A DNA stretch of 64,000 nucleotides from an uncultured Acidimicrobiia bacterium (GTDB lineage Bacteria; Actinomycetota; Acidimicrobiia; Spongiisociales; JAOTWH01). The notes under the pieces are model-generated. The model was given only the letters and a program-made list of their open reading frames with translations, had not been told where the DNA came from and made no database searches. Positions 38,657 to 59,956 of this stretch are shown here, one piece after another. The first letter of the stretch is position 1. Each line of letters opens with the position of its first letter. A program made the position numbers and the translations under genes. The DNA lies in contig CAXMQS010000049.1 of assembly GCA_964195995.1 (NCBI GenBank), positions 407 to 64,406 on the forward strand, written 5' to 3'.

Positions 38657-39919
38657 GTGCAGCCAACACCCACCGATAGAGACAACGTGGCGGAACAGCC
38701 TCACAGCCGGTCCTTGCGCGATTACGCCTCATTCGAACTGGAGCGTAAGGGATACAACCGCGCCCAGGTCGATGCCTTCCTCACTGAGCTCGACCAGGCC
38801 TTCCTGGAGCTCGAAACCTCTGTCAAGGAGCGCGGCAACGAGGTCGCCGAGCTGCAGGTGGAGGTCGAGCGCCTCAAGCGCGAATCCCCAGTAGGTCGGG
38901 GTGAGGAGATCTTGAAGCGGGTCGAGACCAATGCCGAGCAGATGCTGGCCTCCTCGCTTGCTGAAGGGCAGGAGATCGTCGCTAAGGCCGAGGCGATGGC
39001 GATGCGCATCATCGCCAACGCACGGGCGCAGAGTCAGGACCTGGCGGCGCAACCGCCCGGCTTCGGCATGCTGGCTCGGGTCCGCACGGAAGCTGCAGAC
39101 ATCGATCGCATCAAAGCCGAACACGCTGCTGTGATGGAGGAGCGGCCCGAGCTGCTGGCGCCTGGCGAAAAGATCGTCACCTTCGGCGACGAGGAACCCA
39201 CCGTTGTACCCGAGGCCGCGCCGGCTCCGCCGAAGAAGCCTGCTGGCGCCAAGAAGAAGTCCGCTGCCAAGGCCCCACAGCCAGCCAAAGAGACGGAAGA
39301 GGTCGAGGGAGTCGATGAAGAAGAGCCGACCGAGGCCAAGGTGCCGCGTATCAAGCTGGTCGAGCCGCCGACGGTAGAGAAGGTCGCCGCTGAGGAGGTC
39401 ACGGTCGAGGCCGAGGCTGCCGACGAGGTCACGATCGAGGCCGCTGAGGAGGACACGGTCGAGGCTGTCGAGGAAGTCGCCGCCAAGACTCCCGAGGAGG
39501 TCACGGTCGAGGCCGCTGAGGAGGTCACGATCGAGGCTCCCGGCGAGGTAACAGTCGAGGCTGCCGAGGAGGTCACGGTCGAGGCCGATGACGACGAGAT
39601 CATGCTCGATCCCAAGGCCTTCGATTGGGGTGCCGCCCGCCAAGAGGCGATTCAGGCACGCGGCGACGAGGTCACTACCGAGCCTCCTGAGTCCGAAGAA
39701 GAGCCCGAAGAGGACCCAGAAGAGGACCCAGAAACTGCGGCCATCGCAGCCGCCAGGGAGAAGCTGCCAACTGTCATGAGACGAGAAGGTTCGCGGTACG
39801 AACGCCATAGCGCCAGCCTTCCCAGGATCGGCAGCGAGGGCGAATCGACACTTTCGGACGTGTCCAAGGTCAGCAAACGCCGGAGGCGCCGCGCCGCCTA
39901 CCGGGATGACGAGAGGTAG
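38657..39919 (+). CDS. DivIVA-domain protein with long acidic tandem-repeat region
   Basis: ORF track 420 aa. N-terminal FELERKGYNRAQVDAFLTELD is a DivIVA-type motif, followed by a coiled coil, then a Lys/Ala/Pro segment, AEEVTVEA repeats and a basic tail KRRRRRAAY. Confidence 0.7.
   Translation: MQPTPTDRDNVAEQPHSRSLRDYASFELERKGYNRAQVDAFLTELDQAFLELETSVKERGNEVAELQVEVERLKRESPVGRGEEILKRVETNAEQMLASSLAEGQEIVAKAEAMAMRIIANARAQSQDLAAQPPGFGMLARVRTEAADIDRIKAEHAAVMEERPELLAPGEKIVTFGDEEPTVVPEAAPAPPKKPAGAKKKSAAKAPQPAKETEEVEGVDEEEPTEAKVPRIKLVEPPTVEKVAAEEVTVEAEAADEVTIEAAEEDTVEAVEEVAAKTPEEVTVEAAEEVTIEAPGEVTVEAAEEVTVEADDDEIMLDPKAFDWGAARQEAIQARGDEVTTEPPESEEEPEEDPEEDPETAAIAAAREKLPTVMRREGSRYERHSASLPRIGSEGESTLSDVSKVSKRRRRRAAYRDDER
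39388..39585 (+). repeat. in-frame degenerate 24-nt (8-aa) tandem repeat, about 8 units (AEEVTVEA)
   Basis: GCTGAGGAGGTCACGGTCGAGGCC and variants are repeated head to tail. Translated units: AEEVTVEA / ADEVTIEA / AEEDTVEA / VEEVAAKT / PEEVTVEA / AEEVTIEA / PGEVTVEA / AEEVTVEA. Confidence 0.8.
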
Positions 39920-45667: not shown

Positions 45668-46966
45668 ATGAGGCGGCTAGGACGTCGATGGTCATGGGGG
45701 GCTCTATTTGCGGTCCTCCTTCTGATCGCAGCGGCATGCGGGGACACCGGGTCCACCGAAACAACTACGGGCGCTACGCAGGCCCCGGGTACGGAAGCCC
45801 CGAGCACGGAAGCCCCGAGCACTGAGGCCCCAACGACGGATGCGCCGCCACCAGCCGAGCCGGTCACGATCGGGATGATCCTGGTTGGACCGGAGAACGA
45901 CCGCGGTTGGTCGCAGGCCCACGCCGAAGCCGGCCAATACGTGGTCGACCTACTCGGCGGCGAGTTGATCATCATCGACAAGGTCAACCCGGCAGATCGG
46001 CCCGAGACGACGATCGAGGCCGTTGCAGCCGACATGATCGACCAGGGTGCGGACATCATCTTCGCCACCTCAGACGACATGAAGGACGGCATCGAGGCTG
46101 CCGCCGCCCAGTTCCCGGACACCCCGATGGTCTGGAGCTCCGGAGACAGCGCCTGGAGCGATGCCCCCGGCTACCGCCCCGACCTCGCCAACCTTGGAAA
46201 CACGATGGGACGCATGGAGTTCGGTAAAGCCATCGCCGGCTGTGCCGCAGCGCTGACCAGCCAGACCGGCTCGATCGGTTATGTCGGTCCGCTGATCAAC
46301 GACGAGACCCGTCGGCTGGTCAACTCGGCTTATCTCGGAGCCGACTACTGCTACGTCAACCACATGGGCGGCAGCCCGGGTGGTATCAACTTCGAGGTCA
46401 ACTGGATCGGTTTCTGGTTCAACATCCCAGGCTTCACCCTCGATCCGACGCAAGTCAGCAATGACTTCTTCGACGGCGGTGCCGACGTGCTCATCTCGGG
46501 TATCGACACCACGGAGGCCATCGTGCGAACCGGCCAGCGGGCCGCAGCCGGTGAAGCAGTCTGGGCAATCCCCTACGACTTCCGGGGTGCCTGCGACGAG
46601 GCGCCTGACGCATGTCTTGGCGTCCCCTACTTCAACTGGGGACCCGAGTATCTGGACATCGTCAGATCGGTCAATGACGGGACTTTCGAGGCCACCTGGA
46701 ACTGGTTCGGTCCCGACTGGGAGAACATCAACGATGTTCAGACCAGTGGCATCGGTTGGATCGATGGCCCAGGCCTCTCCACAGAGAACGCCCAGTGGCT
46801 CGCCCAGTTCATCGCTGGACTCGCCGACGGTTCGATCAACCTGTGGACAGGACCGCTCAACTACCAGGACGGATCGACGTGGCTCGCCGCCGGCGAAACC
46901 GCGACCGACGCACAACTCTGGTTCACTGAACAACTCCTCGATGGAGTCGACGGAGCCAGCAGCTAG
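45668..46966 (+). CDS. BMP-family (PnrA-like) nucleoside-binding ABC transporter lipoprotein
   Basis: ORF track 432 aa. AGGAGG SD. Lipobox LIAAACG, a Thr/Pro/Glu-rich linker, then IGMILVGPENDRGWSQAH typical of the Bmp family. Confidence 0.88.
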   Translation: MRRLGRRWSWGALFAVLLLIAAACGDTGSTETTTGATQAPGTEAPSTEAPSTEAPTTDAPPPAEPVTIGMILVGPENDRGWSQAHAEAGQYVVDLLGGELIIIDKVNPADRPETTIEAVAADMIDQGADIIFATSDDMKDGIEAAAAQFPDTPMVWSSGDSAWSDAPGYRPDLANLGNTMGRMEFGKAIAGCAAALTSQTGSIGYVGPLINDETRRLVNSAYLGADYCYVNHMGGSPGGINFEVNWIGFWFNIPGFTLDPTQVSNDFFDGGADVLISGIDTTEAIVRTGQRAAAGEAVWAIPYDFRGACDEAPDACLGVPYFNWGPEYLDIVRSVNDGTFEATWNWFGPDWENINDVQTSGIGWIDGPGLSTENAQWLAQFIAGLADGSINLWTGPLNYQDGSTWLAAGETATDAQLWFTEQLLDGVDGASS

Positions 46967-46984: not shown

Positions 46985-47016
46985 GAGAAAGGAGAGGCTG
47001 CGGCCTCTCCTTTCTC
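46985..47016 (+). terminator. intercistronic perfect hairpin after the binding-protein gene
   Basis: GAGAAAGGAGAGGC-tgcg-GCCTCTCCTTTCTC, a 14-bp perfect stem 19 nt after the stop codon. No U-tract follows. Likely an mRNA-stabilising or attenuating element, as is common after ABC binding-protein genes. Confidence 0.5.
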
Positions 47017-54255: not shown

Positions 54256-56469
54256 CTACAGCCCGACGATGTCCTCGGGACGCACCGGCACTCGAGTAAG
54301 CGGCTTGCCGGTGGCGTTGCGAATGGCGGCGACGACGGCTGGGGTGGAGCTGATGGTTGGCGATTCGGCAATCCCCTTGGCGCCGAATGGCCCAAAGCCG
54401 CCTTCCTCTTCGAGAAGCACCATGTCGACGGTGGGGGCATCGAGGAACGTCGGCAGCAGGTAGTCGGTGAAGTTGGCGTTGAGCATCTTGCCGTCACGCA
54501 GCACGATCTCTTCCATGATGGCCAGGCCGACGCCCTGCATGGTCCCGCCCTCCATCTGACCGACGACAGACGTCGGGTTCAACACCTTGCCGACATCCTG
54601 CACGGTGTCGACGCTGATCACTCGCACCAGACCGAGCTCTTCGTCGACGTCGACGACGGCGCGGTGGCCGGCGATGCCGAAATCGACGTGGACGTCGCCG
54701 TGGAAGTTCTCATCGGGCGGGCTGGTTGGGGGATGCCGGTAGGTGGCCAGGAACTCCACCGGCCCGTCGGCGCAGACCTGATCCAGGGTCGCCACCACCT
54801 CGCCGTCTTTGTGTACGCCGTCGTCGAAGAGGTCGTCGCCATCCCACTGCTCCAGGACCTTGTCGCGCAGGCCGACGCAGGCTGCGTACACCGCTCCCCC
54901 GGTCATCGGGGTCTGACGACTGGCCGAGGTTGAGCCGGCCGAGCCGATGAGTGACGTGTCGTCGAAGACCCAGGCGACATGGCTGAGCCCGAGCACGGTA
55001 CGGCCGACCTGCTGCATCGCGTTGATCATGCCCTGGCCGCATTCCACCGAGGCGGCGTGGATCTCGGCACCGGCCGGGTTGAGGATCATGCGGACCTCGG
55101 TCGAATCGTCGAAACCCTCCGAGAACATGAGGTTCTTTAGCCCCAGTGCGTAGCCGACGCCCCGCTTCACTGAGGAGCGCTCCGTAGTCAGCCCGGTGCC
55201 GCCCGGGAGGTGGCGGGGGTCGTCGCTGTCCAGGGCGGGCGGAAGCGGCATCGCCAACAACTCCTCGATCACCTTGTCCGTCGGCAGTGGGCGATCGAAC
55301 CGCTGGCCCGATGTCGGCATGTGATCGCCCTGGACCAGCATGTTCCTTCGTCGCAGGTCCATTGGGTCCATCTCGAGGGCAGCGGCCAGCTTGTCCATCT
55401 GAGCCTCAGACCCAAAACAGGACTGGACCGCCCCGAAGCCTCGCATGGCGCCACACGGCGGGTTGTTGGTCCTCGTCCCGAAGCCGTGGATGGCAACCGA
55501 CGGCACCTTGTAGGGACCCACTGCGAAGTAGGTGGCGTTGGCGAGGACCGGCCCGGTGGTCGAGGCGTAGGCGCCGCCATCGAGGATGAGCTTGGCCTCG
55601 ACGCGCACCAGGTTGCCCTCGGCATCGGCCTCGTGGCGATACCACATCCGTGATGGGTGCCTATGGACATGGCCCACGAAGCTCTCGCCACGGTCGTAGT
55701 GGAACTTGACGGGACGACCGGTCCGCAGTGCCAACAAGCAGGCGTGGATCTGCAGGCTGATGTCCTCCCGGGATCCGAATGCGCCGCCCAGCCCGCCGGG
55801 GTGGACACGCAGCTGGTCCGGCTCGAGGCCGAGACACGGCAACATCTGTTCGTGATCGGCATGGACCCACTGGGTGGGCGCATAGAGATCCACACCACCC
55901 TCGCCGTCGGGGATCGCCAGCCCGGCCTCCGTACCCAGCGGGGCCTGGTCCTGCATGGCGGTCTCGTAGTAACCCTCGACCACTACCTCCCCTCGCAGCT
56001 CCTGATCGCCGGAGCGCAGATCCATCTCGCGAAAGACCTCACCGGCTGCGACGGCCTCCTCGGAATCGATCAGCGGCTCCAACTCCTCGAACTCAACATC
56101 GATGGCAGCCACCGCCCGCCGTGCCGTCTCGGGGTCATCGGCGGCGACGATGGCAGCGGGTTCGCCCCAGTAGTTCGTGATCTCGTGGGCCAGCACCGGT
56201 TGATCGGCGTCAACGAGTCCGAAGGTCTTATCGCCGGGCACGTCGTCGTGTGTGAGTACTGCATGGACGCCCGGCATCGCTAATGCTGGGGCGATGTCGA
56301 GGCGAACGATCCGCGCCTTGGCGTAGGGACTGCGCAGGGTTGCCCCATGGAGCATCCCTTCTGCGTACAGGTCGTTGAGGAAGGCGAAGTCACCCTGAAG
56401 CTTGGCAACCCCGTCGGGACGGATGGTGCTCTCGCCGATGCCGCCCTTGACTCTTTGGTCGGTGGTCAT
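54256..56469 (-). CDS. xanthine dehydrogenase family molybdopterin-binding large subunit
   Basis: ORF track 737 aa. Aldehyde oxidase/XDH a/b-hammerhead and MoCo-binding domains (GGLGGAFGSRED, GFGAKGIAESP). Confidence 0.92.
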   Translation of the reverse strand: MTTDQRVKGGIGESTIRPDGVAKLQGDFAFLNDLYAEGMLHGATLRSPYAKARIVRLDIAPALAMPGVHAVLTHDDVPGDKTFGLVDADQPVLAHEITNYWGEPAAIVAADDPETARRAVAAIDVEFEELEPLIDSEEAVAAGEVFREMDLRSGDQELRGEVVVEGYYETAMQDQAPLGTEAGLAIPDGEGGVDLYAPTQWVHADHEQMLPCLGLEPDQLRVHPGGLGGAFGSREDISLQIHACLLALRTGRPVKFHYDRGESFVGHVHRHPSRMWYRHEADAEGNLVRVEAKLILDGGAYASTTGPVLANATYFAVGPYKVPSVAIHGFGTRTNNPPCGAMRGFGAVQSCFGSEAQMDKLAAALEMDPMDLRRRNMLVQGDHMPTSGQRFDRPLPTDKVIEELLAMPLPPALDSDDPRHLPGGTGLTTERSSVKRGVGYALGLKNLMFSEGFDDSTEVRMILNPAGAEIHAASVECGQGMINAMQQVGRTVLGLSHVAWVFDDTSLIGSAGSTSASRQTPMTGGAVYAACVGLRDKVLEQWDGDDLFDDGVHKDGEVVATLDQVCADGPVEFLATYRHPPTSPPDENFHGDVHVDFGIAGHRAVVDVDEELGLVRVISVDTVQDVGKVLNPTSVVGQMEGGTMQGVGLAIMEEIVLRDGKMLNANFTDYLLPTFLDAPTVDMVLLEEEGGFGPFGAKGIAESPTISSTPAVVAAIRNATGKPLTRVPVRPEDIVGL

Positions 56470-56930
56470 GCGTTCTCCTCAGCCAGTGCTTCGAGGCCAC
56501 GCAGAATGGCGCCGTATCCGGTGCAGCGGCAGATGTTGCCCGACAGCTCCTCGCGGATCTCATCCGATGACGGGCTCGGGTTCTCTTCGAAGAGATGGGC
56601 GGCCGCCACCACGAACCCCGGTGTGCAGAATCCGCACTGCACGCCACCGGCTTCAAGCATGGCCTCTTGCACCGGATGCAGCGAGCTCTCGTCGGACAAC
56701 CCCTCGACCGTTGTCACCACAGAGCCCTCGGCATCGGCCGCCATCACCAGGCAGGAGCAGACGGCCTCGCCGTCGAGGATGACGGTGCACGACCCGCACT
56801 CCCCTTGCTCACAGGCCGGCTTGGAGCCCGGCAACGCCAGATACTCACGCAACACCGTAAGAAGGCTCTCCGACCCGGTGACGGAGGCGTGCCGGTCCTC
56901 GCCGTTGATCTTGAGCGACAGGTCCGTCAC
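56466..56930 (-). CDS. (2Fe-2S)-binding small subunit of the XDH-family enzyme
   Basis: GTG 56930 (GTGA overlap with the upstream stop; GGAGAGG upstream). CEQGECGSCTV and CGFCTPG...CRCTGY cluster motifs. 154 aa. Confidence 0.92.
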   Translation of the reverse strand: MTDLSLKINGEDRHASVTGSESLLTVLREYLALPGSKPACEQGECGSCTVILDGEAVCSCLVMAADAEGSVVTTVEGLSDESSLHPVQEAMLEAGGVQCGFCTPGFVVAAAHLFEENPSPSSDEIREELSGNICRCTGYGAILRGLEALAEENA

Positions 56931-57724
56931 AGGCACCTCTCCAGGAGACGACGAGCCAGAACCCCCGAGGCGTGGCGGCGGTAGGCCTCGGTAGAGCGGT
57001 GGTCGGTTATCGGCATGACCTCTTCCGACACCAGCCGCGCGAACTCGGCGCGGGCGGCTTCTGAAGGATGCGCCTCGGCGGAGATCATGGCCTCGGCCCT
57101 GCGGGGTCGCAACGGCGTCGGCGCTACCGAACCGAGGGCGATGGTCGTCGTGCCGTCCTCGGCGCGGAAGAGGCACGCCGACACGGTGGAGATGACCATG
57201 GCATTGCGAACGCCGATCTTGGCGAAGGCCTGTCTGTCGGGGACGTCCTCGGGAAGGATGGCAGCGGTGATGATCTCGTTGGGTTGGCAGGCATTCTTCT
57301 TGACTCCTGTGATGAACTCGTCCCACCGCATGGTTCGGGTCCCTGCGACCGACGCCAGTTCGATCTCCGCGTCGAGGGCGGCCAGGAATGGCAAGGCATC
57401 GCCGGCCGGGCTGGCGGTCCCGAGGTTGCCGCCGATGGTTCCGGCGTTACGGATCTGCGGAGAACCGACGGTGCGGCTCAACTCGGCGAGGGCCTTGTGA
57501 GGGCCCTGTTCCAGCCGGCGGTACGTCGCCCCGGAGCCGATGCGCTTGGCATCGAAGTCACGAAGTTCGCCTACGCGGCGAAGGGCGATCACGCTATCCG
57601 GTCGATATCCGCCGAGGTTGACATCAACCATGAGGTCGGTGCCACCTGCGAGCAGCTTGGCCGCGGGGTCCGCCTCGAGGGCTTGCAGCGCCTCGCCGAG
57701 GTCCTGGGGAAGGGTGGCTTGCAC
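56927..57724 (-). CDS. FAD-binding medium subunit of the XDH-family enzyme (CoxM-like)
   Basis: ORF track 265 aa. LLAGGTDLMVDVN and GTIGGNL motifs. GTG start at 57724. Confidence 0.9.
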   Translation of the reverse strand: MQATLPQDLGEALQALEADPAAKLLAGGTDLMVDVNLGGYRPDSVIALRRVGELRDFDAKRIGSGATYRRLEQGPHKALAELSRTVGSPQIRNAGTIGGNLGTASPAGDALPFLAALDAEIELASVAGTRTMRWDEFITGVKKNACQPNEIITAAILPEDVPDRQAFAKIGVRNAMVISTVSACLFRAEDGTTTIALGSVAPTPLRPRRAEAMISAEAHPSEAARAEFARLVSEEVMPITDHRSTEAYRRHASGVLARRLLERCL

Positions 57725-57735
57725 GAGATGAGGCT

Positions 57736-58045
57736 AGCTCCTCCCCCTCTAGGGGGAGGAGCTGCAATATCGGGGGGGTCGCGTTTCCTCCGCCTAGGGG
57801 GAGGTGGCCCGAAGGGCCGGAGGGGGCTTCCTGTTTCCAGGCCTCGCGCAGAAGCCCCCCTCCCCGCCTGCGGCGGGACTCCCCCCTATGGGGGGAGAAA
57901 CAGCAATGTCGGCGGGGTCGCGTTTCCTCCCCCCTAGGGGGAGGTGGCCCGAAGGGCTGGAGGGGGCTTCCTGTTTCCAGGCCTCGCGCAGAAGCCTCCC
58001 TTTCCGCCTGCGGCGTTTCTCCCCCCTTATGGGGGGAGAAACGCG
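57736..58045. repeat. direct repeat with a 139-141 bp period (2 full units plus a partial unit), built from GC-rich hairpins
   Basis: Unit A starts at 57775 and unit B at 57914. The partial unit 57736-57774 matches the 3' end of unit A. Perfect hairpins at 57737-57762 (12 bp) and 58013-58044 (14 bp), and an 8-bp one at 57879-57897. Details are in the findings. Confidence 0.9.
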
Positions 58046-58064
58046 GAGCAACTACCTTGACGCG

Positions 58065-58589
58065 ATGATGATTCGCTCAGAGACCCCGGCCGACATCGAT
58101 GCGATTCGGATCATGACCGATGCAGCCTTCGGTGGGACCACCGAGTCGATGCTCGTTGGCTTGATCCGGGACTCCGAGAGCTTCGTGCCCGGGCTATCTC
58201 TCGTAGCCGTCGAGAATGACGAGGTGCTGGGCCATGTGCTCTTCAGCCATGTGACGCTCGATGGGGAGAACCCTCGCCTGGTCCTGTCGCTGGCGCCCCT
58301 GTCAGTCCATCCCGACCACCAGAACAAGGGGGTCGGCTCAGCGCTGATGGCGGCCGGCATCGAGGCTGTCCGGGCTGCCGGCGAGGACATCATCGTTCTG
58401 GAGGGACACCCCGGCTACTACCCGCGCTTTGGCTTCGAACGCGGAATCGACGTTGGCATCGACAAGCCCGACCCGCGGGTTCCCGACGATGCCTTCATGG
58501 TCTTCTTTGCCGACGAGGCAGCTCGGGGTACGACTGGAAAGATCGTCTACCCCCCGGCGTTCCACGACGCCGGTGCCATCGGGCCCTAG
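58065..58589 (+). CDS. GNAT-family N-acetyltransferase (YhbS-like)
   Basis: MMIRSETPADIDAIRIMTDAAFGG...VHPDHQNKGVGSALM...GYYPRFGF. ATG 58065 inside track ORF 57804..58589, whose 5' part merely translates the repeat. Confidence 0.85.
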   Translation: MMIRSETPADIDAIRIMTDAAFGGTTESMLVGLIRDSESFVPGLSLVAVENDEVLGHVLFSHVTLDGENPRLVLSLAPLSVHPDHQNKGVGSALMAAGIEAVRAAGEDIIVLEGHPGYYPRFGFERGIDVGIDKPDPRVPDDAFMVFFADEAARGTTGKIVYPPAFHDAGAIGP

Positions 58590-59956
58590 ACGGCCTCCAT
58601 CAGCCGCCGAGTCGCCGCCCGATGCTGGGCAGCCACCTCCAACTCGTCGGCGCCGACGAGTTGACCATCCCTGACGACGGCCGCGCCGTGGACGAAGGTA
58701 TTGGCGACGCGCCCAGGGTGGAACAGCACCGCTGCCGCCACCGGGTCCCACTCCGAGCCGGCGTACTCGAACTGGTTGAGATCGATGGTCACGAAGTCGG
58801 CGGCCATGCCGGGCTCGAGCGAACCAACGTCGTCGCGGCCCAGGACCGCAGCCCCGCCGATGGTCCCCAGCTCCAGCACCTGGCGTGCGGTGAGCTGAGC
58901 ACCCTCGCCAATGCCGGGGGCGACGCCGAGACGATTGAGCATCAGGGCCTGACGGGCCTCGGCCAGCATGTGGCTGGAATCGTTGGAAGCCGACCCGTCG
59001 ACACCCAGTCCGGTGGGCACGCCCGCCGCCAGGTATCCGGCGATGGGCGCGATGCCTGAGGCGATGCGCATGTTGGAGGTCGGGCAATGGGCGACGCCGG
59101 TGCCGGCTGCTCCCATGCGCTTGACCTCGTCCGGATTGATGTGAACGCCGTGGGCGAACCACACGTCGTCTCCCATCCACCCGACGTCCTCAGCTAGCTC
59201 GACAGGACGCATGCCGTAGTTGGCGAGGCAGAACTCGTCCTCGTCGAATGTCTCCGCAAGGTGGGTGTGCAGGTGAACGCCTTTGGCGCGCGCCAACTCG
59301 GCGGCGGACCGCATCTCTTGCTTCGTCACTGAGAACGGCGAACACGGCGCCACCACCACCCTCACCATGGCGCCTGGGGAAGCGTCGTGGTGAGAGTCGA
59401 TGGTGCGGGTGGTGTCGGCGAGGATCTCGGCCTCCGTCTGCACGACGGAGTCCGGCGGCAACCCGCCGTCCTTCTCGGACAGGCTCATCGAGCCCCTCGA
59501 GGCGTGGAAGCGCAGGCCGATGTCGGTGGCGGCTCTCACCTGGTCATCGACTGACGATCCGTTGGGCCATAGGTACTGGTGGTCGAAGGCCGTTGTGCAG
59601 CCAGACAGGGCGAGCTCGGCCAGGGCGGTGCGGGTCGCAGTGAAGACGTCTTCAGGGGTGAGGTTGGCCCAAATTGGGTACAGCGTCCGCAGCCAATCGA
59701 AGAGACCAGCGTTCTGGGCGCCGGGCACTCCCCTGGTGAGCGTCTGGTACATGTGGTGATGCGTGTTGACGAGACCGGGCAACACGAGGTGCCCACCCAC
59801 ATCGACAACGGTGTCCGCTGTCTGTGGAAGGTCTGCGGAAGAACCGACCTGGGTAATCCAGCCGTTCTCGGCCAGCAACCCGCCGTCGGCGATCTCGCGA
59901 CGGTCGCCGTCCATCGTCACCAGCACGGCAGCGCCCTTGACGAGCAGGGTGGTCAT
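58586..59956 (-). CDS. 8-oxoguanine deaminase-like amidohydrolase (guanine/cytosine deaminase superfamily)
   Basis: ATG 59956 (ATGA overlap with the upstream stop). MTTLLVKGAAVLVTMDG...LPGLVNTHHHMYQTL...HLAE...GVDGSASND are metal-dependent hydrolase motifs. Confidence 0.8.
   Translation of the reverse strand: MTTLLVKGAAVLVTMDGDRREIADGGLLAENGWITQVGSSADLPQTADTVVDVGGHLVLPGLVNTHHHMYQTLTRGVPGAQNAGLFDWLRTLYPIWANLTPEDVFTATRTALAELALSGCTTAFDHQYLWPNGSSVDDQVRAATDIGLRFHASRGSMSLSEKDGGLPPDSVVQTEAEILADTTRTIDSHHDASPGAMVRVVVAPCSPFSVTKQEMRSAAELARAKGVHLHTHLAETFDEDEFCLANYGMRPVELAEDVGWMGDDVWFAHGVHINPDEVKRMGAAGTGVAHCPTSNMRIASGIAPIAGYLAAGVPTGLGVDGSASNDSSHMLAEARQALMLNRLGVAPGIGEGAQLTARQVLELGTIGGAAVLGRDDVGSLEPGMAADFVTIDLNQFEYAGSEWDPVAAAVLFHPGRVANTFVHGAAVVRDGQLVGADELEVAAQHRAATRRLMEAV

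Follow-up and report, generated by a model that had tools for sequence, protein, structure and literature searches.

What occupies the space between two genes that are transcribed away from each other in an uncultured Acidimicrobiia bacterium? In the 64,000-nt stretch of DNA analysed here (from contig CAXMQS010000049.1; hereafter the window), 340 nt separate the GTG start codon at 57724 of the FAD-binding subunit of a xanthine dehydrogenase (XDH)-family molybdoenzyme, on the minus strand, from the ATG at 58065 of a GNAT acetyltransferase gene, on the plus strand. These limits of the gap, given by an earlier reading made from the letters alone (the sequence-only reading), agree with the coordinates and with the list of open reading frames (ORFs). 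That reading described the gap as a hairpin-rich direct repeat and offered three explanations for it: a structured leader or non-coding RNA (ncRNA) controlling the molybdoenzyme operon, which it listed first, a dispersed element resembling repetitive extragenic palindromic (REP) sequences or miniature inverted-repeat transposable elements (MITEs), and a minisatellite resembling a variable number tandem repeat (VNTR). The analysis presented here makes it likely that the gap is a cluster of REP-type palindromic DNA modules, similar to the bacterial interspersed mosaic elements (BIMEs), and not an RNA element. On this reading the dispersed element and the minisatellite are both correct descriptions, jointly, and the structured leader or ncRNA is not.

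How regular is the repeat? Tandem Repeats Finder (TRF) reports a single array at 57743-58042 with a period of 140 nt, 2.1 copies, 89% matches, 1% indels and a score of 479, and a repeat search returns a 106-nt pair with 90% identity at a spacing of 140 nt, which bears out the claim of a direct repeat of about 139 bp with units that match at some nine positions in ten. At a period of 139/140 nt, unit A spans 57764-57902 and unit B spans 57903-58042. The terminal hairpins that had been claimed at three sites are present as well. Hairpin P (57736-57763) is a perfect 13-bp palindrome, AGCTCCTCCCCCT-CT-AGGGGGAGGAGCT, that is also found in a conspecific genome (L010) and on a short-read contig (L001), both described below. 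Hairpin R_A (57879-57897) is a perfect hairpin of 8 bp, and hairpin R_B (58013-58044) is a perfect 14-bp palindrome, GCGTTTCTCCCCCC-TTAT-GGGGGGAGAAACGC, with the form a-palindrome-a(complement); the ancestral state of the R hairpin, seen in L010 and in unit A, has 8 bp only. With up to 3 mismatches allowed, 0.00 chance occurrences of the hairpin motif are expected in the window, and blastn at word size 7 found nothing comparable in its remaining 63.7 kb. A head-to-tail repeat whose copy number differs between strains is a VNTR or minisatellite, an assignment that is descriptive and leaves the origin of the unit unexplained.

What, then, is the unit made of? The basic module is ~41 nt long and consists of a head (CCCCCTCC, or CCCCC(T/A)CC in its family-wide form), a hairpin a with a 5-6-bp stem of variable sequence and a loop that is usually TTC, a linker A(C/G), and a hairpin b, CCTCCCCC-N3-GGGGGAGG, of the general form (C)CTCCCCC-N3-4-GGGGGAG(G). 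A covariance model of this module, R1, was built from 19 copies, all from foreign (alphaproteobacterial) contigs, and was run over the 64-kb window with filters off. It returned six matches, all within 57740-58039, and the next best match had an E-value of at least 0.3. Four of the six modules are good, two are degenerate, and their orientation alternates. The layout is that of a divergent heterotypic doublet, in which a minus-strand module of the GGCCC type, a spacer of 29-31 nt and a plus-strand module of the CCGCC type follow one another, and two such doublets stand in tandem. In unit A, module M1 (57787-57826, minus strand; R1 52.5 bits, E=8e-13) reads CCCCCTCC-GGCCC-TTC-GGGCC-A-CCTCCCCC-TAG-GCGGAGG on the minus strand, and its first 30 nt show no difference from the alphaproteobacterial consensus. 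A 29-nt spacer (57827-57855), which is the same in unit B and L010 and is found neither on the foreign contig L039 introduced below nor in other hosts, leads to module M2 (57856-57898, plus strand; 31.2 bits, E=7e-7), which reads CCCCCTCC-CCGCC-TGC-GGCGG-GA-CTCCCCCC-TAT-GGGGGGAG and is identical to the L039 copy at 37/38 positions. In unit B, module M4 (57926-57966, minus strand; 56.4 bits, E=6.8e-14) is followed by a 31-nt spacer (57967-57997) and by module M5 (57998-58039, plus strand; 19.4 bits, E=1.4e-3), which is decayed by C-to-T changes and has an extended hairpin b. The degenerate modules are M0 (57740-57779, minus strand; 22.5 bits, E=2e-4), in which hairpin P serves as hairpin b and spacer S_A as decayed head and hairpin a, and M3 (57879-57918, minus strand; 20.4 bits, E=8e-4), which is formed at the duplication junction by spacer S_B and by hairpin R_A, held in common with M2. 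As these weak minus-strand matches show, each "spacer" forms a decayed module of its own with the P or R hairpin beside it.

A separate observation concerns the letters of hairpin b. In all copies (57808-57826 and 57946-57966 in the window), the linker and the 5' arm together spell CACCTCC, which we take to match the end of 16S rRNA that carries the anti-Shine-Dalgarno sequence, and GGAGG(T) in the 3' arm is presumably a perfect Shine-Dalgarno sequence. This likeness may be a coincidence of C and G runs, or it may be one reason for the unusual conservation across taxa that is described next.

Is the module confined to this locus? A spurious plus-strand ORF runs through the repeat, and an exhaustive HMMER search with it had a single match, P0121, which is encoded on L039, a 654-nt contig with 64% GC and unrelated flanking ORFs. 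This contig carries two blocks that are at least 90% identical to the window, block X (AGAAGCCCCCCTCCCCGCCTGCGGCGGGACTCCCCCC), represented by M2 and M5, and block Y (CGTTTCC.CCCCC..GGGGGAGGTGGCCCGAAGGGCCGGAGGGG), represented by M1 and M4. They stand in the order X-spacer-Y, without the 38-nt core that is invariant between the units of the window, and the reverse complement of block Y shares the layout of block X, which reduces both to a single module type. A 21-mer of block Y has 23 matches on 17 IMG/VR viral or gene transfer agent (GTA) contigs, with up to 3 per contig, and a 24-mer of block X has no match in viral contigs. The matched contigs code for head genes of alphaproteobacterial GTAs or prophages, namely portal protein and HK97 prohead protease, whose nearest named relatives belong to Methylobacterium, Paracoccus and Sphingomonas. 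Searches with nhmmer and R1 place 107-120 modules in the carrier contigs, or ~1 per kb; the R1 search over the carriers gives 120 matches at E<1e-4, including six in the window, L010 and L039. R1 thus also matches L010 and L039, it matches none of the short-gap orthologues discussed below, and on 202 kb of unrelated contigs it has one good match only.

The modules of this family are grouped as 38 doublets, 32 singlets and 2 triplets. Neighbouring modules are inverted in 38 of 42 pairs, of which 22 are convergent (gaps of 6-19 nt) and 16 divergent (gaps of 11-47 nt), and hairpin a differs between the two modules in 39 of 41 inverted doublets, which makes these heterotypic. With their gaps of 29 and 31 nt, the doublets of the window are of the ordinary divergent, heterotypic sort that the family shows elsewhere. 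Predicted folds consist of separate local hairpins plus head-to-head pairing, and every copy examined falls outside annotated or inferred genes. Plasmids of Rhizobium and Shinella carry the module, a doublet lies between convergent genes on a plasmid of Azospirillum brasilense, and the divergent genes idhA and iolC, 644 nt apart on plasmid pSM30-1 of Pleomorphomonas sp. SM30 (AP017627.1), have a divergent doublet between them (L057:9622-9774), a second case of the module occupying a divergent promoter region. Sites with the same module architecture and a different sequence were noted at L011:3011-3058, L043:566-607 and L043:668-713 (GC 58-60%); one example has the head CCCCTCTCC, then TGTCC-TTCG-GGACA and then CTCCCCGC-CCAA-GCGGGGGGAG, and the L043 variant has the arms CCTTCCCC/GGGGAAGG with GCCCC/GGGGC. 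Such variant modules of other lineages suggest a broad superfamily that is defined by architecture.

A fundamental question is whether the palindromes are conserved as RNA or as DNA. Among 90 distinct copies, 98% of the cells of the 13 modelled pairs are paired, and 10 of the 13 pairs have changed on both sides (120 cells). The alignment behind these values was fitted to the model, which favours pairing; none of 500 shuffles reaches the observed values, and sliding the partner columns abolishes the signal. One covarying position, with the pair types GC:45, UA:29, AU:6 and CG:6, was judged unambiguous despite the model-fitted alignment. G-U pairs account for ~5 of 1150 cells family-wide, and hairpin a keeps its pairing and not its sequence. 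Pairing that is symmetric between the strands, with so few G-U pairs, points to DNA hairpins or palindromes and not to RNA read from one strand. This real covariation is seen only in the wider module family and not between homologous units. The sequence-only reading had reported compensatory stem changes between the copies of the repeat; when units A and B are aligned with that of L010, none of the 43 pairs has changed in both partners, and that claim is not borne out. The same alignment contains five one-sided changes to G-U plus a few mismatches, and the 14-bp hairpin of unit B arose by a one-sided multi-base change, GGGAC to GTTTC, opposite a GAAAC that already existed. The neighbouring arm GCGTTTCC may have served as donor in a conversion that perfected this hairpin, or the template may have been switched within a quasipalindrome. 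When the units are folded, both strands are about equally stable, with z-scores of -1 to -4.9 (unit B has -3.8 for the plus and -4.9 for the minus strand), which is the behaviour of DNA palindromes.

How are the two genes transcribed if the element fills the gap between them? Both promoters and 5' untranslated regions had been placed inside the repeat. Conserved TANNNT hexamers are found outside it instead, 6-8 nt from each start codon: a -10-like TAGCCT at 57731-57736 on the minus strand, 6 nt upstream of GTG 57724, and a -10-like TACCTT at 58053-58058 on the plus strand, 6 nt upstream of ATG 58065, each a putative promoter. On the FAD side, all six of six close orthologues have a TAGCCT or TAGATT whose end is 6-8 nt away from the start codon, and on the GNAT side a TANNNT (TACCTT, TACGGT or TAGCCT) ends exactly 6 nt ahead of the ATG in five of five orthologues; the background rate of such a placement in the window is 0.0019 per position. 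No Shine-Dalgarno sequence stands ahead of either start codon, and a consensus scan inside the repeat found no sigma-70 promoter and no intrinsic terminator. Leaderless genes of actinobacteria have a sigma-A promoter with only a -10 element and their transcription begins at the start codon, as transcription-start maps of Mycobacterium show. From their upstream sequences, the mRNAs of the FAD operon and of the GNAT gene both look leaderless. With the -10 boxes of the two genes just outside, the repeat fills non-transcribed space upstream of both promoters. The sequence-only reading was right that the hairpins cannot be terminators, as the scan gives 0 terminator-like sites and both neighbours point away from the gap. 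The two -10 boxes are 316 nt apart here and 25-52 nt apart in relatives, and GC-rich palindromes would have replaced both -35 regions.

The age of the element can be judged from related loci. The metagenome-assembled genome (MAG) "Acidimicrobiia bacterium BS1bin.31", which is conspecific (L010; 95-97% identity over 5.5 kb, same gene pair), has a gap of 200 nt with hairpin P and one unit, where the window has two. Three orthologous loci (L024, L025 and L038), whose FAD subunits are 87, 85 and 83% identical in amino-acid sequence, hold the same divergent GNAT/FAD pair and -10 boxes, with gaps of only 53, 80 and 65 nt that show no similarity to the element; these short ancestral gaps already contain small palindromes and G/C runs. 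A further locus (L037; 93% amino-acid and 85% nucleotide identity) keeps TAGCCT and has unrelated sequence in place of hairpin P. The orthologous loci without the element have 81-85% nucleotide identity. Because the element is present in conspecifics and absent from these orthologues, it is a recent, lineage-specific insertion. On short-read contig L001, the FAD gene is 100% identical to that of the window at the nucleotide level and the flanking match extends over 1213 nt without a difference, yet L001:1-62 differs from window positions 57764-57804 by 4 substitutions and 2 indels within ~35 nt of repeat. This contig joins hairpin P to a spacer of the type seen in unit B and L010, and it breaks inside the repeat. 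Its differences point to mutation that is locally raised, to module copies that convert one another, or to alleles that co-exist. The comparison of MAGs for copy number that had been proposed as a check thus gives one unit in L010, two in the window and a different allele in L001; judged from these aligned loci, the element is duplicated in tandem relative to a conspecific genome and is hypervariable within the species.

These observations can be joined in a model. One doublet, together with a degenerate module ending in hairpin P, would have been inserted between back-to-back leaderless promoters in a recent ancestor of the species. The agent was likely a trans-acting enzyme that recognises single-stranded DNA hairpins, namely a Y1 transposase of the RAYT (REP-associated tyrosine transposase) or TnpA-REP type, of the kind that REP sequences typically flank; alternatively, a small DNA fragment may have been acquired. 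The 139/140-nt unit would then have been amplified from one to two as the nearly identical hairpins P and R recombined unequally or let replication slip from one to the other, with P the likely recombination partner of R in the duplication; amplification driven by a transposase, as proposed for the BIMEs of E. coli, is the alternative. If copies converted one another, or were corrected with a palindrome as template, this would account for the hairpins of 13 and 14 bp being perfect and for substitutions being locally in excess. That the element was inserted, and that its copy number differs, can be read from the compared loci themselves; the enzymology we infer. As the flanking genes are intact and conserved, the host most likely tolerates the array as selfish or neutral DNA. 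At most, the array might act as a supercoil-absorbing insulator that uncouples the two divergent promoters.

How well does a REP/BIME-type cluster describe what is seen? The 41-nt module is an extragenic, GC-rich palindrome whose stems stay complementary through base changes. Units of different subtype are joined by a linker in inverse orientation (38/42 inverted, 39/41 heterotypic). Copies stand in tandem, and their number at the locus varies between strains, with one in L010, two in the window and a different allele in L001. Each of these features is expected of BIMEs and of REP sequences, which are imperfect palindromes of 20-40 nt. L039 and model R1 led us to abandon two other interpretations, in which the gap held either one MITE bounded by terminal inverted repeats or a regulatory insertion peculiar to this locus.

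Several findings weigh against a REP/BIME assignment. No further copy was found in the other 63.7 kb of the window or in ~31 kb from relatives; REP sequences typically number tens to hundreds per genome, and in the 64 kb of this genome that were covered every copy lies in this gap; one further locus of the same subtype was found, on L039. The 5' GTAG that REP sequences of enterobacteria and pseudomonads conserve (PMC3333891) is absent from the module alignments, in which the conserved 5' element is CCCCC(T/A)CC. No RAYT or other transposase was identified in the 64 kb, the ORFs of which were partly scanned with Pfam, and no target-site duplication or exact boundary of insertion can be defined, the empty sites being too diverged. 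An identity of ~90% between Alphaproteobacteria and Acidimicrobiia is also atypical of REP families, as a rule each confined to one species or genus; it is the most surprising fact of the analysis, and it suggests horizontal acquisition or conserved sequence constraint. The scans of two genome and metagenome contig collections, finally, say little about the distribution of the family. They used 19- and 20-mers from the 38-nt core, which is a lineage-specific doublet spacer and not a pattern of the module's own such as GGGGGAGGTGGCCCGAAGGGC, and they returned only chance 19-25-mers and the orthologous locus L010; one metagenome match, L030, was rejected as coding sequence with chance similarity.

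Other searches were without a match. Rfam at the gathering threshold gave 0 matches in the window or in six carrier loci, and at E<=10 it gave noise only, the best sub-threshold match being c4-2 with 21 bits against a threshold of 41. No tRNA or tmRNA was found. The sequence-only reading recognised no known riboswitch and no REP or MITE family in the repeat; the Rfam scan agrees with the former, and the grammar of the modules matches that of REP/BIME elements. The sequence of the module family was not found in the searchable literature. A blastn search of the whole gap against plasmids and phages returned no match, probably because the low-complexity filter masks the C and G runs, and protein searches with a minus-strand spurious ORF and a six-frame chimeric query matched nothing.

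Could the element be explained in another way? One hypothesis is that the palindromes are operators to which a transcription factor binds as a dimer, regulating the GNAT gene jointly with the XDH-family operon, and that the duplication added operators. Each -10 box directly follows a palindrome, P at about -12 to -39 and R_B at about -21 to -52, strand-symmetric covariation is what recognition of double-stranded DNA would produce, and the Pleomorphomonas doublet likewise lies in a divergent promoter region. However, the module occurs about once per kb inside head-gene operons of GTAs and prophages and also between convergent genes, with no regulon pattern, and orthologous promoters with the same genes and -10 boxes do without the whole element. 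Moreover, a hairpin a that conserves pairing and not sequence fits a constraint on hairpins better than a base-specific operator, and perfect GC arms of 13-14 bp are atypical of operators, all of which makes this hypothesis unlikely. The hypothesis of a structured RNA holds that the unit is a small RNA (sRNA) or a structured leader or attenuator that was duplicated. It can appeal to the many stable hairpins and to the z-scores of unit B, to the C-to-T direction of the one-sided changes in unit B, which give G-U pairs on the plus strand, and to the fact that transcribed REP-type elements can act at the RNA level (PMC5082802). In this case, though, all orthologues have their -10 boxes beyond the element, as near the start codons as in leaderless genes, and lack a Shine-Dalgarno sequence; the interior holds no promoter or terminator consensus, both strands fold alike, and Rfam has no match. 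The family has hardly any G-U pairs, its copies face either way and sit in unrelated contexts, orthologous loci lack the element, and homologous units show 0 compensatory changes. We consequently give an RNA element very little probability, and the leader or ncRNA of the molybdoenzyme operon, which the sequence-only reading had put first, finds no support in the position of the -10 boxes, in the orthologues, in the strand symmetry of folds and covariation, or in the Rfam result.

Is the second unit real? Two single-unit strain alleles might have been chained in metagenome assembly to give a false second unit. The source is probably a MAG, the conspecific MAG has one unit, the short-read contig with the identical FAD gene (L001) has a different P/spacer junction and breaks in the repeat, and units A and B are ~10% apart, as two alleles might be. 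The A/B junction, GGGGGGAGAAAC|AGCAATGTCGG (57889-57911), nevertheless has no long k-mer in common with the junctions of L010 or L001, so that chaining would need reads that truly contain the A/B junction, and a strain-variable tandem number is normal for BIME-2 and REPIN arrays (PMC3333891, PMC3337134). Independent two-unit assemblies were sought through exact matches to the GNAT product, for which ten alternative starts were allowed, and none is on record; look-ups of ORF products spanning the A/B junction found no match. On balance an assembly artefact appears quite improbable. A last hypothesis dispenses with a dispersed element and lets the array grow locally from an ancestral seed by successive duplications, inverted duplications and quasipalindrome correction. 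The likeness of hairpins P, L and R, the perfection of R_B by a one-sided multi-base change, and the small palindromes and G/C runs of the short ancestral gaps would all agree with it. But a model trained on foreign copies scores window modules at 52-56 bits, the first 30 nt of M1 are the alphaproteobacterial consensus, and L039 has the same X and Y blocks beside unrelated genes. Local growth is contradicted as the sole explanation, and we consider it extremely unlikely in that role, but it may have contributed to later remodelling of the array.

The genes on either side of the gap are assigned by Pfam. The FAD-binding subunit (56927-57724, minus strand; CoxM/XdhB type; Pfam FAD_binding_5 3.7e-39, CO_deh_flav_C 7.6e-12) heads a minus-strand operon with the order FAD / 2Fe-2S / Mo-subunit, according to the ORF list and Pfam. 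The GNAT gene (58065-58589, plus strand; Pfam Acetyltransf_9/1/7) keeps its start codon in L010, L024, L025 and L038. Further repeats were noted in these surroundings. In two relatives (L025:11258-11386 and L024:6333-6443), the Mo-subunit gene opens with a hairpin-rich, in-frame tandem repeat with a period of 54 nt, GGAGTTGCGAAGCAACTCC CCAGCAACGCCGCAGGCGTTGC CGCCAAGAGCGCT, and both contigs terminate within it; the Mo-subunit gene of the window (MTTDQRVKGG..., equivalent region ~56380-56469, minus strand) is without it. This repeat could be a second, unrelated insertion of palindromic repeats in the same operon. A perfect 11-bp palindrome, CAACTCGTCGG-CG-CCGACGAGTTG, at 58640-58663 lies within the 3' end of the amidohydrolase gene, near the convergent overlap of GNAT and amidohydrolase (the GNAT stop ends at 58589 and the low end of the amidohydrolase ORF is at 58586), and is also found in the conspecific MAG (L010:536-559). 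A perfect 14-bp hairpin, GAGAAAGGAGAGGC-TGCG-GCCTCTCCTTTCTC, at 46985-47016 begins 19 nt past the stop of ORF 45668-46966 and ends 42 nt ahead of the next ORF (start 47059); it resembles a terminator without a T run and is unrelated to the module family. A tandem repeat at 39412-39591, with periods of 24 and 72 nt, ~7 copies and 73-83% matches (TRF score 201-225), probably encodes a repetitive acidic segment of a protein.

What would the module mean beyond this locus? It is conceivable, though we hold it to be doubtful, that the module represents an undescribed and unusually conserved REP/BIME-type superfamily of several alphaproteobacterial orders and an Acidimicrobiia species, which would imply spread across phyla or constraint by a host factor, and that the array has perhaps been co-opted, with its copy number tuning expression. 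If this were true, REP/BIME DNA would spread horizontally between phyla, against the view of REPINs and RAYTs as vertically inherited, or a widely conserved host factor would constrain the sequence, and mimicry of Shine-Dalgarno and anti-Shine-Dalgarno sequences by the arms of hairpin b (CACCTCC, GGAGGT) would be one candidate constraint. The array would then serve as a supercoil-absorbing or cruciform-extruding spacer that uncouples formerly overlapping leaderless promoters, and copy number would tune expression between strains. Apart from this proposal, the locus holds a lesson for annotation, namely that selfish palindromic DNA, and not regulatory RNA, can lie behind a promoter gap that is rich in hairpins and looks "structured", and that apparent compensatory changes between palindromes require no selection at the RNA level. 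REP/BIME-like arrays are poorly documented in Actinomycetota, and the module seen here matches that of Alphaproteobacteria nearly base for base. The increase in the separation of the -10 boxes from 25-52 to 316 nt amounts to a natural experiment on promoter coupling, and the hypervariability within the species (1 versus 2 units; 6 differences in ~35 nt beside 1.2 kb of identity) makes the array a possible strain marker.

How does the cluster compare with known systems? It shares with the mycobacterial interspersed repetitive units (MIRUs) and VNTRs that it is an intergenic tandem repeat of strain-variable copy number in an actinobacterium. MIRUs are units of 40-100 nt that often continue reading frames within operons, whereas the 140-nt unit described here combines inverted palindromic modules and lies in a promoter gap that is not transcribed. 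MITEs are likewise short non-coding insertions with inverted-repeat ends that are present or absent between close relatives; here, however, the inverted ends (23 nt, 83% complementary) are the two inverted modules themselves, no target-site duplication was identified at the empty sites L024, L025 and L038, which are too diverged, and no parent insertion sequence is known.

The closest likeness is to BIMEs and REPINs. BIMEs are pairs of REP and inverse REP (iREP) sequences with linkers, and BIME-2 elements are heterotypic (y+z2), tandem and variable in number between strains, for which an amplification model has been proposed (PMC3333891). Like the E. coli BIMEs, the modules are GC-rich extragenic palindromes in inverse pairs with poorly conserved linkers and stems that stay complementary through changes (PMC3333891), and like BIME-2 they form tandem, strain-variable arrays of subtype-mixed pairs (y+z2 there; GGCCC-type with GTCGC/CCGCC-type here). 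They differ in having two hairpins and a C-rich head in ~41 nt where E. coli has one imperfect palindrome, in lacking the 5' GTAG, and in lying between two promoters rather than in a 3' untranslated region or between cistrons. Pseudomonas fluorescens SBW25, with its REPINs and RAYTs, shows the same dominance of inverted doublets, singlets that are likely decay products, and variable spacers (PMC3116915, PMC3337134). It also has highly structured tandem REPINs (up to 5) and long, perfectly palindromic REP singlets of the form a-palindrome-a(complement) (PMC3337134), to which hairpins P and R_B are similar. Both members of a REPIN belong to one group ("no hybrid REPINs") and fold together as one long hairpin (PMC3337134), whereas the doublets here are heterotypic and their modules fold separately, and vertical inheritance within lineages is described for REPIN-RAYT systems, in contrast to the ~90% identity across two phyla seen here. 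The RIMEs, Sm-repeats and AB/C palindromes of Sinorhizobium and Br-REP1/2 of Bradyrhizobium (PMC2573895, PMC5082802) are also multi-palindrome intergenic repeats, of unknown function, whose hosts are alphaproteobacterial, as are the main hosts of the module (Pleomorphomonas, Azospirillum, Rhizobium, Shinella), and whose abundance varies between related genomes. The published core of Br-REP1, CCGGAATCTCGAGATTCCGG, is unrelated in sequence (PMC5082802); RIMEs and Sm-repeats are likened to the module by their description only, and the module may be identical with a named rhizobial family or distinct from it. Current concepts stand unchanged unless the cross-phylum distribution proves to be general. 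The gap holds a real repeat, which is best explained as belonging to an already known kind of element.

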